A stretch of DNA of 64,000 nt from Peptostreptococcaceae bacterium (lineage in GTDB: Bacteria; Bacillota; Clostridia; Peptostreptococcales; Filifactoraceae): positions 6,860 through 70,859 of the forward strand of contig JAUMYL010000017.1 of assembly GCA_030528675.1 (NCBI GenBank), read 5' to 3'. Positions 52,037 through 61,952 of this stretch are shown in pieces. Under the pieces are notes generated by a model that was not told the origin of the DNA, searched no databases, and saw nothing but the letters and a program-made list of their open reading frames with translations. The number at the start of each line of letters is the position of its first letter. The first letter of the stretch is position 1. The translations under genes and the position numbers were made by a program.

Positions 52037-53368
52037 TTGGACAAAAAAGCGAATGAACTCAGAGAGATCAGGATCACGAAAGACTATATAAAATATGCGG
52101 AGGGATCGGTGCTCGTCGAATTCGGCGATACGAAGGTCATCTGCACGGCCTCTGTCGAGGAAAAAGTACCTCCCTTCCTCAAAAATACGGGTACGGGCTG
52201 GGTCAGTGCGGAGTATTCGATGCTGCCCCGCTCGACTCAGCAGCGAAAGATCCGCGATGCCGCAAGGGGAAAGATCGACGGAAGGACGCACGAGATCCAG
52301 CGTCTGATCGGCAGAGCCCTCCGCTCTGTCGTCGATATGAAGGCGTTGGGAGAGCGGACGGTCTGGCTTGACTGTGATGTGATCCAGGCGGACGGAGGGA
52401 CGAGGACGGCCTCGATCACGGGCGCCTTTGTCGCGCTCTGTGAAGCGCTTTACGGACTCTACCGGAAAAAGACGGTCGCGAAGTTTCCGGTCAGCGCCTT
52501 CGTCAGCGCGGTCAGCGTCGGTATCGTCGATTCGAAAGAGATCCTCGACCTCTGCTACGAGCAGGACTCAAGGGCGCAGGTGGATATGAACGTCGTCATG
52601 ACGGACAGGGGCGAATTTATCGAGGTACAGGGTACGGGAGAGGAACAGCCTTTTACGAAAACCCAGCTCTATGCACTGCTGGAGCTTGCAGAGCAGGGAA
52701 ACCGCGAGCTGATGCGTATTCAGCGAAAGGTGCTCGGCGAGGAGATCGCCGGTCTGATATCCGAAAAGCCGAGAACCGAATTTGTCATCGCTTCCTCAAA
52801 TGCACACAAGATGGAGGAGATCGGAGCGATTACGGAGAGGATGAACCTTCGTCTGCTCTCTCTGCGGGATGTGGGGCTGGAAGGTCTTGCAATCGAGGAG
52901 AGCGGCACGACCTTTGAGGAAAATGCGCTGATCAAGGCGAGAGAAGTGGCGGCGCTGACCGGAAGACCTGCGGTCGCCGACGATTCCGGGCTGATGGTCG
53001 ATGTGCTCGGAGGGCGTCCCGGCGTCTATTCTGCCCGTTTTTCCGGCGAGGGAGCCACGGATGAAAAGAACAATGAAAAACTCCTGACGCTGCTCAGAGG
53101 CTATGATCTGGACAGCAGAACCGCAAAATTCGTCTCGGTGATCGCCGTCGTTTTTCCGGATGGAAAGGAGCTGATTGCGAAGGGGATCTGCGAAGGCAGG
53201 ATCGGGTTTTCGCCCGAAGGCGGCGGAGGCTTCGGCTATGACCCGCTGTTTACCCCCAAGGGGATGAACAGAACCTTCGCTCAGATCACGCCGGAGGAGA
53301 AAAATGCGGTCAGTCACCGTGCGAAGGCGCTAAAGGAGATGGTGAGACTGCTCGGAGAGACGATCTGA
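52037..53368 (+). CDS. bifunctional ribonuclease PH / non-canonical purine NTP pyrophosphatase (rph-rdgB fusion)
   Basis: 443 aa. Residues 1-240 are RNase PH (...[18 protein letters not shown]...). Residues 245-443 are the Ham1/RdgB fold ([14 protein letters not shown]...[10 protein letters not shown]...FGYDPLF). Confidence 0.88.
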
Positions 53369-53468
53369 GGAGAAATCTTTTTGTAGATTTTTTGTAAATC
53401 TTTGCCTGAAAACTTTTGGTAAGATGAAATCAGGAGCTGTTTTCATTCTGTCTGCAAGGAGGAAAAAG

Positions 53469-55965: not shown

Positions 55966-56033
55966 CTACAGATAGGCAGCGGTATAAGAGCTTTTTATAA
56001 AATGAATATAATCGAAAAAAGGAGATGAACTCT

Positions 56034-57632
56034 ATGCAACTTTCTTTTTACGGAGCGGCTCGTGAGGTCACGGGAAGCTGCTATCTTCTGGAAGCCTGCG
56101 GGAAGAATATCCTGATCGACTGCGGGATGGAGCAGGGGCTCGGCGCCGACAACACCAAAGAGCTGCCGGTACCGCCGGTCAGGCTCGACTATGTTTTTCT
56201 GACTCATGCGCATATCGACCACTCAGGGAGACTGCCGCTGCTTGCCAAACTCGGCTTTGCGGGTGAGATTTACGCGACGGAGGCGACGACGGACCTGTGT
56301 CAGATCATGCTGAGAGATTCCGCCCATATTCAGGAGTTTGAGGCGGAGTGGCGCAACCGTAAGGGCAAACGCTCCGGAAAGGGAGGTTTTGAGCCTCTGT
56401 ATGGGATGGGAGATGCGGAGGCGATCATGGAGACCTTCATCCCCTGTACCTACGACCGGCTCGTCGAGGTAGCGGAGGGGATCCGTATCCGTTTCATCGA
56501 CGCGGGACATCTGCTGGGTTCCTCTTCGATTGAAGTCTGGATAGAAGAAGAGGGCGTCTCCAAAAAGATCGTCTTCTCAGGGGATGTCGGCAATATCAAC
56601 CAGCCGCTGATCAAAGATCCGACTTATATCAAAGAGGCGGACTATGTAATCGTTGAATCGACCTACGGAACCCGTCTGCACAATCCGCCTCTTGACTATG
56701 CGACCAATCTCGCCTCTGTGATCCAGCGAACCTTTGACCGGGGCGGCAATGTGGTCATCCCTTCTTTTGCAGTGGGCAGGGCGCAGGAGCTTCTGTACTT
56801 TATTCGAAATATCAAGGCGAAAGGCATGGTCAAGGGGCATGAGGGCTTCAAGGTCTATGTCGACAGTCCTCTTGCCAACGAGGCGACGGCGATCTTCCGG
56901 GACAACACGGAGATCTTCGATGCGGATGCGACGGAGCTGATTCGTCAGGGGATCAACCCGATCAGTTTTGAGGGACTGAAACTCTCCGTGACGGCGGACG
57001 ACTCCCGTGCGATCAACTTCATCGACGAGCCCAAGGTGATCATCTCCGCCTCGGGCATGTGCGAAGCCGGAAGGATCAAACACCATCTCAAGCACAATCT
57101 CTGGAGGGAAGAAAGTTCGATTGTCTTTGTCGGCTATCAGGCGGTCGGAACGACGGGACGGGCGATTGTCGACGGGGCGAGCGCGGTCAAGCTCTTCGGC
57201 GAGGAGATCGAGGTTCATGCAGAGATCGTCACTTTGGAAGGCATCAGCGGTCATGCGGATCAGAAAGGGCTGCTGAACTGGCTGGACGCCTTCGATAAAG
57301 TGCCTGAGCGCATCTTCGTTACCCATGGAGACGCGGAGGTCAGCCTCGCCTTTGGGGAGATCCTCAGAGAGCGCTACAAGACCCGGGTTTCTGTGCCGAA
57401 GTACTCGGAGCTTTACGATCTTGCGACCGGAGAGATGCTCAGAGAAGGCTACCAGCAGGAGAAGAAGGCCGCGGCGATCCAGAGGACGGAGGAAGGCACC
57501 GTCTATCAGCGTCTTCGTGCAGCCGGAGATCGTCTGGTGGAAGTGATCCTGCACAATAAGGGCGGAGCGAACAAGGATTTGGCGAAATTCGCCGATCAGA
57601 TCCTTGCCCTTGCGGAAAAATGGGATCGGTAG
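56034..57632 (+). CDS. MBL-fold beta-CASP ribonuclease (CPSF-73/RNase J-like, RMMBL C-terminal domain)
   Basis: HxHxDH = HAHIDHSG. Motifs ESTYG, GHADQ, THGD. About 530 aa. Confidence 0.8.
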   Translation: MQLSFYGAAREVTGSCYLLEACGKNILIDCGMEQGLGADNTKELPVPPVRLDYVFLTHAHIDHSGRLPLLAKLGFAGEIYATEATTDLCQIMLRDSAHIQEFEAEWRNRKGKRSGKGGFEPLYGMGDAEAIMETFIPCTYDRLVEVAEGIRIRFIDAGHLLGSSSIEVWIEEEGVSKKIVFSGDVGNINQPLIKDPTYIKEADYVIVESTYGTRLHNPPLDYATNLASVIQRTFDRGGNVVIPSFAVGRAQELLYFIRNIKAKGMVKGHEGFKVYVDSPLANEATAIFRDNTEIFDADATELIRQGINPISFEGLKLSVTADDSRAINFIDEPKVIISASGMCEAGRIKHHLKHNLWREESSIVFVGYQAVGTTGRAIVDGASAVKLFGEEIEVHAEIVTLEGISGHADQKGLLNWLDAFDKVPERIFVTHGDAEVSLAFGEILRERYKTRVSVPKYSELYDLATGEMLREGYQQEKKAAAIQRTEEGTVYQRLRAAGDRLVEVILHNKGGANKDLAKFADQILALAEKWDR

Positions 57633-57646
57633 GAGATTGAAAGAAA

Positions 57647-58777
57647 ATGCTGATTTTTAGCGAATTGATCAAAAAATTTGACAAAATCAGAGAGTATATG
57701 AGAGATTTTTATGTCTACGGCTTTCGAACGCGGGAAAACTTCGGAAGCCGAAAGAGCCTGCGCAGCTATGACAACGAGAGGCGGAGAATCGAAAGCTATC
57801 TGGAGGACTTCATGTCCTTTCGCCAAAATGACAGGGGAAAGATCGTCTTTTTGAGCGCAGACAGCAGGGATATCTCCGCCAATCCCTTTTACAGAGCTTT
57901 TAAGGCCAAAAGTTTCACCAAAAAAGACATCAGCCTGCACTTCATTCTGCTGGACATTTTGCAGGAGGGTATCAGACTGTCTTTATCCGAGATTATGGAG
58001 AAGATCGGGGAAGAGTATCTGAGTTTTTTTGAATTTCCGATGGAGATCGACGCGGCGACGGTGCGCAACAAGCTGCGGGAATACGAAGGAGAAGGCCTCT
58101 TCGTCTCGGAAAAAGTCGGAAAAACTCTGCTCTACCGAAGGAGAGAAGAGGAATCGGAGAGTCCGCCCTCTATTGACGCGATCCGTTTTTTCAGCGAGGC
58201 GGATCCCGCCGGCGTCGTCGGCAGTTTTCTTCTGGACCGATATGAGGAGAAACGCCCTGTAAATCCGCCCTTTTCCTACAAACACCACTATATTATGCAC
58301 GCTCTCGACAGCGAGATCTTCTGCCTTGCGGCGGAGGCGATTGCCGCGGAGGAGACTGTGGAGATCCTTCGCCGCGTCCGCAGCGGCAGGGAAGAAAAGG
58401 AAACCGTCTTTCCGATCAAGATCCTCCTCAGCGTCCAAAGTGGAAGGAGTTATCTTTCGGCATACCATTTTCGAGACAGACATATTTTCAACTACCGTCT
58501 CGATCATATTCTCTCTCTGCGTCGGACGGGAGAGCGCCGCGCCGCCCTCGGAATGCGGGAGAGGTGGAAGGAGCTGATGGACGAGGCCTGGGGAGTGTCC
58601 TTCGGAAAGAAGGGGCCGCCGGAGAGCGTCGAGATGATCCTTCTGATCCCGCCGCAGGAGCGTTTTGTGCTGGAAAGGATCCTTCGAGAGGGAAGACATG
58701 GGCGTGTCGAAGAGCTGGGAGAGGGAAGATACCGCTATGCGGTAAAGGTCAGGGACTCTCGGGAGATGCTCCCCTAG
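57647..58777 (+). CDS. HTH-WYL-domain transcriptional regulator; reading frame interrupted by in-frame TAG inside the C-terminal WCX-like segment (homology continues in-frame to 58954)
   Basis: wHTH in the middle region. WYL core SYLSAYHFRDRHIFNYRLDHI (WYLxA...FRLDRI pattern). After the TAG at 58775-58777 the same frame reads LRTFLGRIEQIRFSDEKVEKL, which aligns with the WCX motif LLSFGPMIEVIEPESVREKI of the paralog downstream. Confidence 0.6.
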   Translation: MLIFSELIKKFDKIREYMRDFYVYGFRTRENFGSRKSLRSYDNERRRIESYLEDFMSFRQNDRGKIVFLSADSRDISANPFYRAFKAKSFTKKDISLHFILLDILQEGIRLSLSEIMEKIGEEYLSFFEFPMEIDAATVRNKLREYEGEGLFVSEKVGKTLLYRRREEESESPPSIDAIRFFSEADPAGVVGSFLLDRYEEKRPVNPPFSYKHHYIMHALDSEIFCLAAEAIAAEETVEILRRVRSGREEKETVFPIKILLSVQSGRSYLSAYHFRDRHIFNYRLDHILSLRRTGERRAALGMRERWKELMDEAWGVSFGKKGPPESVEMILLIPPQERFVLERILREGRHGRVEELGEGRYRYAVKVRDSREMLP

Positions 58778-58943
58778 CTGAGAACCTTTCTCGGGAGGAT
58801 CGAGCAGATCCGTTTCAGCGATGAGAAGGTCGAAAAACTCTTTTACGCCGATCTGGAAAATATGAGAAGAAAATATGAAGAGCCGCAGTCCCTCCGTCCG
58901 CGGCGCAAAAGGGCGTCTTCCGAGATAGAAAGGGGAGAAGAAG

Positions 58944-59912
58944 TTGATCTTTCATGAGATCTACGGTCTGTATTACAGGAGTGTCGAGAAGATCCTAAGG
59001 GCGATTCTCGAGCGAAGGAGATCCGGCGGACCGCCTCTGTCGGGCAAGGAAGCGAGGAAGCTCATTGATGAGACCGCTTTCTCGGAAAGCAGCATGGCGA
59101 TCCTTTCGGCGATTGAACAGGAAGAGTGGCAGATGATCCGAAAGGATATGAGCAGTCCGATACGCCATTTGCCCTCGCGGCCCCGGACGCTTTTGGAAAG
59201 ACGCTGGCTGCAGGCGATTGCGGGAGATGAAAAAATGAGACTTTTCGGGGAAGTGCCTCTTGTTTCAGAGGAAGATCCTCCGCTGTATCGCAGAGAAGAC
59301 CTCTTTCGAATCGACCGTCCCTCCGACGGTGATGACTTTTCCGATCCGGGGTATATTGAAGTGTTTCAGGCGTTGTTGCGCGCGGTCAAGGAGGAAAAAC
59401 TCGTTCAGATTGCCTTTCTTTCGGCGAAAGGGTTTCGTAAAAAAGGGCTGTTCTTTCCCGGGAAGCTGGAATACTCGGCAAAAGATGAAAAGTTTCGCCT
59501 GATCGCAAAGAGATCTTCTGCCTATGGCGTGGTCTCTGATATCATCGTGACGATCAATCTTGCGCGGATCCTCTCTGTCACCGTCATGGAAGAGATCACG
59601 CCGGAGTTTTTGATCGGAGACTTCCGCTTTGAGGAGCCGAAAGAAAGCGTCCTGCTGCGCTTGTATGACCGCAGAAACGCTTTAGAGCGTGCCTTGCTTC
59701 ATTTTGCGGACTTCGAAAAAGAGACCGAGCAGATAGAGGGACTTCTCTATGAAATGAAACTGCGTTTTGCAAGCAAGGACGAGTCCGAGATCCTGATCCG
59801 CCTGCTCTCCTTCGGGCCGATGATTGAAGTGATCGAGCCCGAGAGTGTTCGGGAGAAAATCCGACAGAGACTGCAGAGGCAGGCGGAACTTTGGGGAAGA
59901 AGAAGGTGTTGA
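58944..59912 (+). CDS. WYL/WCX-domain regulator paralog
   Basis: 322 aa. TTG start after AAAGGGGAGAAG. C-terminal ...LIRLLSFGPMIEVIEPESVREKIRQRL is a typical WCX segment. Confidence 0.55.
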   Translation: MIFHEIYGLYYRSVEKILRAILERRRSGGPPLSGKEARKLIDETAFSESSMAILSAIEQEEWQMIRKDMSSPIRHLPSRPRTLLERRWLQAIAGDEKMRLFGEVPLVSEEDPPLYRREDLFRIDRPSDGDDFSDPGYIEVFQALLRAVKEEKLVQIAFLSAKGFRKKGLFFPGKLEYSAKDEKFRLIAKRSSAYGVVSDIIVTINLARILSVTVMEEITPEFLIGDFRFEEPKESVLLRLYDRRNALERALLHFADFEKETEQIEGLLYEMKLRFASKDESEILIRLLSFGPMIEVIEPESVREKIRQRLQRQAELWGRRRC

Positions 59913-59937
59913 AGTTGCGAATTCAAGTTCGCAACTT
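59912..59937. repeat. perfect 10-bp-stem hairpin AAGTTGCGAA-ttcaag-TTCGCAACTT (copy 1; spans the stop codon of the WYL paralog)
   Basis: Identical hairpin repeated at 60177-60202. Confidence 0.85.
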
Positions 59938-59949
59938 CACATTGCAGAC

Positions 59950-60015
59950 AAACTTCAAAAATCATTCGACGGCGCGGACTTGCTTTCGGAAAAATCGGAC
60001 TCGCTCACCGGAAAT
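59950..60015 (+). repeat. dispersed repeat family B copy
   Basis: See 55899-55965. Confidence 0.75.
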
Positions 60016-60079
60016 TTCGAACGAGCTCCAAGCGGCGTCCTGCCGCTTTCGCTCTAAAATCAGCGTCCTGCTGATTTTT

Positions 60080-60170
60080 CTGAAATTTCATCGGCTCGCT
60101 CCTCTCGATTTTTTCACGAAAGTTCCTCATCTTCGTCTCATGAATTTTGAAGTTTGTCCGCTTTGTCTTC
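60080..60170 (+). repeat. dispersed repeat family C copy (contains a family-A core fragment CTGAAATTTCATCGG)
   Basis: See 43269-43365. Confidence 0.7.
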
Positions 60171-60176
60171 AGTCTG

Positions 60177-60208
60177 AAGTTGCGAATTCAAGTTCGCAAC
60201 TTTTTTTT
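60177..60208 (+). terminator. strong intrinsic terminator (hairpin copy 2 plus T8)
   Basis: AAGTTGCGAA-ttcaag-TTCGCAACTT followed by TTTTTTTT. Confidence 0.8.
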
Positions 60209-60327
60209 CATGAAAAAAATCAGGATTTGGGATATTCTATATTTGCGGGAGTGATGACGAGAATATCTTTTTTCCGAGGTGCTTGAGGCTCTGCCGTAAA
60301 GTATGCCTTTCCCTCCTGCGGAAAAAT

Positions 60328-60352
60328 GCAGGTTCGAATCCTGCTCAAAGCG
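60328..60352 (+). other. orphan canonical tRNA T-arm plus acceptor-3'-like tail (GCAGG-TTCGAAT-CCTGC-TCAAAGCG) with no tRNA body
   Basis: Exact 5-bp stem / 7-nt TTCGAAT loop. An upstream CCTGC (60315-60319) could alternatively pair with GCAGG. No D-arm or anticodon arm is reconstructable upstream. Confidence 0.5.
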
Positions 60353-60818
60353 TGGTGCTTTGCGTTGGCCGAAACGGGTTTCCTCGAGAAACCACTGAAA
60401 AAGTCAAAGAGCAAAAAAACCGGATTTCCTGCCGAAGACCTGCAGTCAGGGTCTGAAGCGAGCAGAGCTCTGCCTTGTCGAAAGACGGATACCGCAGGAG
60501 CAAAATCAGTCCGAGGGTGCGGAGAAAGGAGCGCGCTCTCCGGCTGATGAGGTTTCCGCTCAAGCCTTTCGCCGCAGAGCTTTGTGGAAGACGGCGGGCG
60601 AAGGAAAGATCCCATGGAGGATCATGTGAAGCAAATAGAGTATAATGTTCATGAGCAGTTACATCCTTTCGGCAATGTTTGTTTTGCGATGATCATTATA
60701 CCGGAAAAAGGGAGTGCTCTTTTATGTGCAAACCTCCGTAAATAAAGGTTTTTAGATAATAAGAATTAAAAAAACAGATAGTGTTTGACACTACCGGACG
60801 GTACGAGGGGGAGATAGA

Positions 60819-61919
60819 ATGAAAACAATCATTTACGAAAATCAAAGAGGTCTTTTGTTCAAAAAGGGAAAATTTGTCAAAATGCTCTCGGCGGGGACTT
60901 ATCGAACCTATGGAAAGAGCAGGGAGATCAAGGTCGTTTCCATCGAAGAGCCTTTTGAGACGGAGGGTTTCGACCTGAAGATCTTCGCGCAGGATGCGCA
61001 GCTGATGAAAGAGCTCGCCTGGGTGGAAGTCCCGGACGGGAGCATTGCCTTCCACTATGCGGACGGGCGCTATCAGGGCTGCCTGCGCAGCGGCGTCCAC
61101 GCTTTCTGGAATGTATATAAGGAACATCGTTTTCAGAAGATCGACATCCGTGAGACCGAGGTGGGAGAAGAAGTGCCGAAGGAGATTCTCAAAGACCTGG
61201 AAGGCAGATTCTGTTTCAGTCTGCGGGTCGGAGCTCATGAAAAGGCGAGGCTGTATTTTGACAACCGCTTCGTTCGGCTGCTTGAGCCGGGCATTTATTA
61301 TTTTTGGGACAACGGCGTCCACGTGGATTGGGATCTTGTCGACACGAGGCTGATCCAAAGAGAGGTGAACGGGCAGGAGATCCTCACCGCCGACAAGGTG
61401 ACGATACGCCTCAATTTCACCTACAGTTACCGGGTATCTGACTGTCTGAAGATCGGCAGTGAGATTGAAGATTATGAAAACCAGATCTATGTCCTGCTGC
61501 AGATGATTCTGCGGGAGTATGTGGGACGGTTCCGGCTCGATGAGATCCTTGGGGCGAAAGAGCAGATCGGAGATTTCGCGCTGGAGAAACTCCGAGAGAA
61601 AGAAGGAGCTTATTTTGTTGAATTTCACGAGGCGGGAGTCAAGGATATCATCCTGCCCGGCGAGATCCGAGAGATCATGAACACCGTGCTGATCGCCGAA
61701 AAGAGGGCGCAGGCGAGTCTGATTGCAAGAAGGGAAGAGGTCGCTTCGACAAGAAGTCTGCTCAACACTGCGAAACTGATGGAAGAGAACAAGACGCTCT
61801 ACAAGCTTAAAGAGCTGGAATACATCGAACGCATCTCAGAAAATATCCACCAGCTCAACCTTGGCGGCGGAGGAAGTCTGCTCTCCGAGCTGAGCCGAAT
61901 CCTCCCGAAAGCCGAATGA
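60819..61919 (+). CDS. SPFH/band-7 (stomatin-prohibitin-flotillin) domain protein lacking an N-terminal transmembrane anchor
   Basis: 366 aa. SPFH core ...QEILTADKVTIRLNFTYSYRV...IILPGEIREIMNTVLIAEKRAQASLIARREE... Coiled-coil tail. Confidence 0.75.
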   Translation: MKTIIYENQRGLLFKKGKFVKMLSAGTYRTYGKSREIKVVSIEEPFETEGFDLKIFAQDAQLMKELAWVEVPDGSIAFHYADGRYQGCLRSGVHAFWNVYKEHRFQKIDIRETEVGEEVPKEILKDLEGRFCFSLRVGAHEKARLYFDNRFVRLLEPGIYYFWDNGVHVDWDLVDTRLIQREVNGQEILTADKVTIRLNFTYSYRVSDCLKIGSEIEDYENQIYVLLQMILREYVGRFRLDEILGAKEQIGDFALEKLREKEGAYFVEFHEAGVKDIILPGEIREIMNTVLIAEKRAQASLIARREEVASTRSLLNTAKLMEENKTLYKLKELEYIERISENIHQLNLGGGGSLLSELSRILPKAE

Positions 61920-61952
61920 AACCATGATATAGCATAGGAGGAGAAGAGTCTT

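Follow-up and report, generated by a model that had tools for sequence, protein, structure and literature searches.

An in-frame amber codon, probably a recent nonsense mutation, interrupts a paired WYL regulator near rtcB in a Peptostreptococcaceae metagenome-assembled genome

The first of two adjacent genes for WYL-family regulators in a Peptostreptococcaceae metagenome-assembled genome (MAG) is interrupted by an amber codon within its C-terminal WCX domain. The gene, here named WYL1 and followed directly by WYL2, lies in a stretch of 64,000 nucleotides (nt) from contig JAUMYL010000017.1 of assembly GCA_030528675.1, referred to below as the window. Its open reading frame (ORF) starts with ATG at position 57647 and terminates with TAG at 58775-58777, giving a product of 376 amino acids (aa), after which the same frame stays open for 59 further codons (LRTFLGRIEQIRFSDEKVEKLFYADLENM...) until a TGA at 58955-58957; a first-pass annotation had described this termination and the open frame to 58954, and both the coordinates and the translation bear it out. 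Stitched together with Trp at codon 377, the two parts encode a 436 aa regulator in which a likely winged helix-turn-helix (wHTH) precedes the WYL and WCX domains. The favoured explanation, to which a probability of roughly 65% is attached, is a recent nonsense mutation leaving a truncated WYL1 that is probably unable to fold its WCX domain or to pair with WYL2, with WYL2 uncoupled and the regulator lost or weakened. No new coding mechanism is involved: the lesion is of an ordinary kind, a gene broken recently by mutation or, possibly, a miscalled base.

The split is judged significant because homology crosses the stop, not because the frame behind it is open. At least 40 open codons follow the stop in 15 of the 39 long ORFs of the window, making the open stretch of WYL1 by itself unremarkable; those of the other long post-stop stretches that were inspected correspond to adjacent ribosomal-protein genes sharing a frame. 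The stitched 436 aa protein has 3782 database homologues, typically about 415 aa in length, with coverage extending to approximately residue 410 and a best E value of 1e-267. Beyond the TAG the downstream frame begins LRTFLGRIEQIRFSDEKVEKLFYADLENMRRKYEE..., and alignments of 20 and 42 sequences show the motif EMLP-W-LRTF(I/L)GRI to be kept, with W377 invariant. The seven invariant family columns past the stop (R379, F381, G383, R384, I385, F399 and D402) are all present in the window's downstream frame. Hence the gene has the signature of nonsense disruption, in that the stop stands where orthologues have a sense codon and homology continues in frame beyond it. The 177 nt behind the annotated ORF, which the first-pass annotation had pointed out would otherwise be an empty gap, are accounted for as the 3' end of WYL1.

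The same evidence leaves virtually no credence for the view that WYL1 genuinely ends at 58777 and that the similarity downstream is spurious. NCBI did annotate the 376 aa product as an ordinary protein, and open frames after stops are common in the window, but a gene end at this position is refuted by homology reaching residue 410, by the preserved columns, by orthologues of 436 aa and by a structural model in which the WCX fold is finished only by residues 378-411. Re-initiation producing a separate C-terminal fragment was likewise rejected, there being no in-frame ATG, GTG or TTG before codon 405 and no ORF listed in this segment. The annotated protein MDO4721230.1 (P0121 in the sequence set used here), from a Peptostreptococcaceae MAG and identical to the window's WYL1 ORF, is instead to be regarded as the product of the 5' portion of a gene of 436 codons that has been disrupted.

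The ancestral state of codon 377 was examined in relatives at several distances. Residue 377 is Trp in all 41 aligned WYL1 homologues. From reference genomes and close relatives 82 WYL1 loci were fetched (numbered L001 onwards), of which 79 have Trp and three have Phe at this position; every copy is uninterrupted, the one apparent stop, in L079, being that protein's genuine C-terminus. The first-pass annotation had named orthologues ending at this point, or a spurious downstream similarity, as what would count against it, and neither was found, with no stop in 82 loci and all seven downstream columns kept. The cluster at 90% identity contains 12 members, of which 11 are intact at 436 aa (approximately 95% identical) and the remaining one is the 376 aa window ORF. 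At the DNA level two intact relatives were compared, L001 (SRR13247038) and the syntenic L002 (SRR33398665), and in each the codon is TGG against TAG in the window, as had been expected for orthologues. Their flanking codons are identical to those of the window. The lesion is therefore one G-to-A transition at base 58776, converting TGG (Trp377) to TAG, in keeping with the single transition originally proposed. The claim that the replaced residue is a conserved Trp holds within the WYL1 orthologues; it does not extend to the WYL2 family, in which the corresponding position is occupied by an invariant Arg (R286), and conservation across WCX domains in general was not shown.

Tests of domain content took as their reference class the wHTH-WYL-WCX transcription regulators (class A of PMC6789036). 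Pfam recognises the WYL domain (PF13280) in the 5' part at residues 227-292 (27.5 bits, cut-off 21.8), and the WCX profile matches residues 343-385 at 17.2 bits, below its cut-off of 23.9 and only when both parts are joined. The structural interpretation is based on the AlphaFold2 model of an intact orthologue, P0001, of equal length and 95% identity, which is confident at residues 223-412 (predicted local distance difference test score, pLDDT, about 80-93). In this model the WYL domain forms a beta-barrel, with a five-strand block at 236-297 (pLDDT about 85-91), followed by the complete set of WCX elements: strand 326-333, helix 336-348, strands 353-358 and 361-368, helix 371-379, strand 385-390 and helix 393-411. 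The fold of residues 326-411 is predicted to be ferredoxin-like with an ancillary C-terminal helix, the hallmark of the WCX domain of PafBC, in which PafB and PafC contact each other mainly through their WCX domains, whose C-terminal helices cross (PMC6789036). W377 is located in the second helix of this domain, alpha2, such that in the window protein the domain is cut at residue 377 and the stop deletes the last part of alpha2 together with beta4 (residues 385-390) and alpha3, the C-terminal helix (393-411), all encoded by the 3' remnant. The model and the alignments thus corroborate the proposal that, in the first of the two WYL genes, the WCX domain is split by the stop.

The N-terminal half of WYL1 is less clearly defined. 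No Pfam helix-turn-helix profile matches, and profile comparison gives weak matches to ArsR, SmtB and NmtR helix-turn-helix proteins (E values of 0.05-0.9, at profile positions 128-188). The P0001 model has a helix-helix-helix-strand-strand block at residues 92-165 (pLDDT 63-92), for which Foldseek retrieves the wHTH proteins MecI and BlaI with E values of about 1e-2. A wHTH in this region is therefore a likely, if weakly supported, prediction.

No decay is seen beyond the stop. Across WYL1 the window and L002 share approximately 93.4% nucleotide identity, with a synonymous divergence of around 0.2. Measured against L001 and L002, the ratio of nonsynonymous to synonymous change (pN/pS) is 0.11 before the stop and 0.12-0.17 after it, and codons 378-412, the conserved part of the WCX domain, contain two synonymous changes and none at 85 nonsynonymous sites. 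For comparison, pN/pS is 0.11 for WYL2 and 0.04-0.08 for neighbouring housekeeping genes. Because the sequence past the stop is undecayed, the stop either arose long after the sister lineage had split off, and is then very young by comparison, or is not real. A recent nonsense mutation or strain polymorphism and a sequencing error, all among the options originally listed, each fit this pattern.

An artefact of sequencing, consensus or binning, with TGG as the true codon, WYL1 intact at 436 aa and the A at 58776 representing a miscall or a minority haplotype, is considered unlikely, though by no means negligible. The source is a MAG, and the lesion is a single substitution in a gene that is intact in the 11 closest orthologues and at all 82 loci. 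Several observations weigh at the same time against a real mutation. A base-call or consensus error would leave the downstream part undecayed in precisely this way; the truncated protein is on record on one contig only; and the A is known from the assembled contig alone, there being one genome of this lineage of 93% identity. Exact look-ups with the truncated WYL1, WYL2, the beta-CASP protein encoded upstream (with two choices of start) and an ABC permease gave no independent contig spanning 58776, and exact-pattern scans of JGI metagenome contigs for the TRG site returned no matches.

Other evidence, however, partly counters an artefact. Substitution errors are rare in short-read consensus assemblies. 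The surrounding 10 kb or so contains no other disrupted gene when compared with the sister contig L002, the neighbouring genes being intact and equal in length to their counterparts and giving no sign of error-prone assembly, and a search of the window for other split genes, as a mark of poor assembly, found none. Logan, an independent assembly resource, appears in the cluster table as a source of the 376 aa protein, this being a listing for which the contig was not retrieved. A different Logan contig of the strain (L083, run SRR24915846), carrying the SPFH and RtcB genes, matches window positions 60150-63236 (3087 nt) at 100% identity; a window-identical protein also occurs in run SRR24915849, and a contig of the same strain carrying RNase PH and Ham1 was found (L084).

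Decoding of the UAG at a useful rate, whether by natural read-through, a suppressor tRNA or pyrrolysine, would yield both truncated and full-length WYL1 and make the stop a tuning device. The perfectly preserved downstream frame would suit such a role, and the base directly after the TAG is C, a stop followed by C being a relatively weak termination context in Escherichia coli. However, no stop occurs at codon 377 in 11 close relatives, 41 homologues or 82 loci, where a conserved recoding site would show one, and in the window TAG closes nine of the 39 long ORFs, the one directly before WYL1 among them. ARAGORN detected no tRNA gene of any kind in the window, and hence neither a suppressor nor a pyrrolysine tRNA there, nor is TAG depleted within it. 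Moreover, the replaced residue is an invariant aromatic of buried type (W or F), making insertion of an amino acid other than Trp doubtful. Read-through, which the first-pass annotation had entertained, is thus disfavoured and very improbable. Reassignment of TAG in an alternative genetic code was rejected on the same usage of TAG and the intactness of conserved genes. The features discussed here and below are collected in Table 1.

Table 1. Positions of WYL1, WYL2 and neighbouring features in the window
Feature	Position	Strand	Description and basis
Beta-CASP / metallo-beta-lactamase (MBL)-fold RNase gene	56025..57632	+	Pfam Beta-Casp, Lactamase_B, RMMBL; ends 14 nt before WYL1 start
WYL1 5' part	57647..58777	+	376 codons plus premature TAG; ORF list
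Premature amber codon (WYL1 codon 377)	58775..58777	+	Middle base 58776 is A; G in orthologues (TGG, Trp)
WYL1 3' remnant	58778..58957	+	Codons 378-436 plus original TGA 58955-58957; translation, alignments
WYL1 domain order by residue			N-terminal extension; likely wHTH ~92-165; WYL 227-292; first two-thirds of WCX within the 376 aa part
WYL2	58944..59912	+	322 aa, TTG start; degenerate WYL domain and WCX domain
Structured RNA element	60270..60344	+	Upstream of SPFH-rtcB; 5' hairpin 60270-60317, T-arm-like hairpin GCAGGTTCGAATCCTGC 60328-60344
SPFH/Band-7 gene	60819-61919	+	Pfam Band_7
RtcB RNA ligase gene	61953-63155	+	Pfam RtcB

WYL2 carries a WCX domain that Pfam detects outright (PF25583, 29.7 bits against a cut-off of 23.9), and a single PADLOC WYL model, PDLC01652, matches residues 219-388 of WYL1 and 138-312 of WYL2 (8e-14 and 7e-13). 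Among the PADLOC defence-system models, only generic WYL models match the pair. The first-pass annotation had aligned the interrupted segment with this downstream paralogue. Direct similarity is weak, BLASTP between the two proteins being not significant (E = 6), whereas hhalign comparison of the two families gives an E value of 2.6e-4 at 42% probability, a weak tie to the C-terminal half of WYL1. The relationship is thus visible at the profile level only, here and in the PADLOC matches.

WYL2 follows directly after WYL1 in 81 of the 82 loci, as an adjacent, co-oriented pair in the manner of PafBC, and the pair is kept across Clostridia (Oscillospiraceae, Anaerovoracaceae, Erysipelotrichaceae and others). 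Of 81 loci, 74 show an overlap between the end of WYL1 and the start of WYL2, which amounts to 14 nt in 40 cases, and in the window's original layout the WYL2 start overlaps the original WYL1 TGA by the same 14 nt. This conserved overlap of frames points to translational coupling between the two genes, and the premature TAG ends translation of WYL1 167 nt before the WYL2 start.

PafBC, the activator of the mycobacterial and actinobacterial DNA-damage response (PDB 6sj9, 7p5x and 9fnd), offers the closest parallel in layout, being likewise encoded by two adjacent paralogous WYL-WCX genes. Its chains are the best PDB sequence matches of the WYL1 and WYL2 profiles (E = 0.0012 and 0.013), Foldseek matches the WYL1 model to PafBC with E values of 1e-10 to 1e-8, and the ferredoxin-like WCX domain with its C-terminal helix is found in both. 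Nevertheless, sequence identity is only about 12-14%, the hosts are Clostridia and not Actinobacteria, and a proteasome (paf) context is absent, the neighbours being genes for RtcB, an SPFH protein and a beta-CASP RNase in place of DNA-repair genes. WYL1 also has an extra N-terminal region of approximately 90 aa, whereas in WYL2 the WYL motif is degenerate and a helix-turn-helix is not demonstrated. Identity, hosts and neighbours alike fail to support orthology to actinobacterial PafB and PafC, with their paf/proteasome locus and DNA-damage regulon; the pair shares the layout of PafBC but does not belong to it.

Foldseek ranks DriD, PafBC, BrxR and CapW as the top matches of the P0001 model. 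The first of these, the WYL activator DriD of Caulobacter crescentus (PDB 8tp8, 7tzv and 9cu3; E = 1.2e-11), has the wHTH-WYL-WCX domain order that is predicted for WYL1, and its C-domain (WYL plus WCX) superposes on the WYL1 model over about 195 residues, with a template modelling (TM) score of 0.72-0.73 and a root-mean-square deviation of 3.4-3.6 A. It differs in being a homodimer encoded by a single gene that senses single-stranded DNA (ssDNA) and controls DNA-damage genes, whereas WYL1 and WYL2 form a two-gene pair. The defence-system repressors CapW and BrxR (PDB 7tb5, 7tb6, 9c5g, 7qfz and 7t8k), with Foldseek E values around 1e-8, have the architecture predicted for WYL1 and control an adjacent operon from a nearby promoter; these too are homodimers, regulating CBASS or BREX operons, in contrast to a pair beside an RNA-repair ligase. 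A functional analogue is RtcR, the sigma-54 activator of rtcBA, a ligand-sensing regulator that adjoins rtcB and is reported to sense damaged tRNA fragments (PMC7790460). It belongs to an unrelated family, combining a CARF sensor domain with AAA+ and helix-turn-helix domains, and has no similarity in sequence or fold to the WYL pair. From gene neighbourhood alone, the WYL pair might sense RNA damage.

The association with rtcB is frequent. In 41 of the 51 loci with full flanks (about 80%), RtcB is encoded no more than 6 kb from the WYL pair, downstream on the same strand in 24 of these and upstream on the opposite strand in 17, and the order seen in the window (WYL1-WYL2, spacer, SPFH/Band-7, rtcB) recurs in approximately 15 loci. 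The SPFH and rtcB genes (60819..63155) are the presumed target operon of the pair, which has the appearance of a PafBC-like regulator, as yet uncharacterised, for a module of RNA repair. In the literature, no paper was found describing a WYL regulator of rtcB or the WYL1-WYL2 pair, and most co-mentions of WYL and rtcB seem to be due to citation of the paper on CARF and WYL domains.

If the mutation is real, the G-to-A change at 58776 would be fixed or polymorphic in the population represented by this MAG. The resulting 376 aa protein, without beta4 and the C-terminal helix, would probably misfold or fail to pair with WYL2, because the missing elements form the interface between PafB and PafC in the PafBC dimer. 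With ribosomes stopping well short of the WYL2 start, coupling would be lost and the output of WYL2 would probably fall. The regulator being lost or weakened, control of the SPFH-rtcB unit would be altered, in a direction that depends on its mode of action. Should the pair be an activator like PafBC or DriD, induction would fail; should it be a repressor like CapW or BrxR, SPFH-rtcB would be derepressed. Loss of induction of the rtcB cluster is at least as likely as derepression, since both DriD and PafBC, the closest relatives in structure, act as activators.

It is improbable that natural selection has favoured the stop as a knock-out or hypomorphic allele, perhaps made leaky by read-through of the UAG at a low level, in a PafBC-like heteromeric WYL1/WYL2 regulator that would control a conserved module of tRNA-like RNA, SPFH protein and RtcB RNA ligase. 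Were this the case, the strain, as a natural mutant, would express RNA repair at constitutively altered levels, and would provide a handle on the signal of the WYL pair, damaged RNA rather than ssDNA.

Between WYL2 and the SPFH gene lies a conserved structured RNA element that is likely to be part of the regulated unit. It was noted over 60270-60420 of the window and also at L003-L007, L008, L010, L012, L014, L030, L035, L045, L046, L063 and L082. Its 5' hairpin, with the consensus CUGCGGUGCnCGAGGnGnUnCCGAAGnGUAUGCC, comprises 10 base pairs with 97.5% of cells paired; five of the pairs show compensatory changes, and the observed score was reached by none of 500 shuffles. One or two hairpins resembling a tRNA T-arm (GGUUCRAWUCC; 60328-60344 in the window) come after it. 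The covariance model built from the element (R1) matches the window and 15 loci, including 14 of the 15 that carry SPFH. In L035 the element lies on the minus strand beside SPFH, which implies that it travels with SPFH-rtcB and not with WYL2. No Rfam family matches anywhere in the window at gathering thresholds, and a permissive scan of 59800-60900 gave sub-threshold matches only, to tRNA (18.4 bits) and Bacillaceae-1 (20.7 bits). The element may be a tRNA-like or Y-RNA-like non-coding RNA, or the leader of the RNA-repair operon.

The same spacer, which measures 906 nt in the window against about 430-630 nt in other genera, contains a perfect 28 nt palindrome (TGAAGTTGCGAATTCAAGTTCGCAACTT) twice within 59910-60205, the copies being 265 nt apart. 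One of them, the first, overlaps the stop codon of WYL2, and the second precedes a run of T in the manner of a terminator. The segment of approximately 290 nt that they bracket has two hairpins in tandem with CGUCCUG loops, as well as long-range inverted repeats, and it is to this segment that the Bacillaceae-1 match belongs, at a score well below the cut-off of 35 bits. Contigs L001, L002 and L083 all end within this element, which might serve as a terminator or a pair of operators, or might be a small repeat element.

Upstream of WYL1, the beta-CASP RNase gene is probably co-transcribed with WYL1 in this lineage, and adjoins it only in the window and in the sister-lineage loci L001 and L002. 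The best NCBIfam similarities of its product are to Cas14 of type VII CRISPR systems (417 bits, cut-off 800) and archaeal aCPSF1. Further upstream, L002 (3910-5875) contains an insertion of approximately 2 kb between the RNase PH-Ham1 and ABC transporter genes that is absent from the window (53368-53424). It encodes an AAA_15/AAA_21 ATPase and a protein of 205 aa, and may represent a small defence island or one resembling abortive infection (Abi) systems.

A broken or miscalled regulator in one MAG matters little by itself, genes broken by point mutation being common in bacterial genomes. If the mutation is real, the strain would be a natural regulator mutant for the RNA-repair module. The surroundings of the lesion are the more useful finding, consisting of an RtcB-linked WYL1-WYL2 pair and a covarying tRNA-like RNA that matches no Rfam family. 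This combination suggests that the WYL pair and the RNA element may constitute a WYL-based counterpart of the RNA-repair response controlled elsewhere by RtcR.

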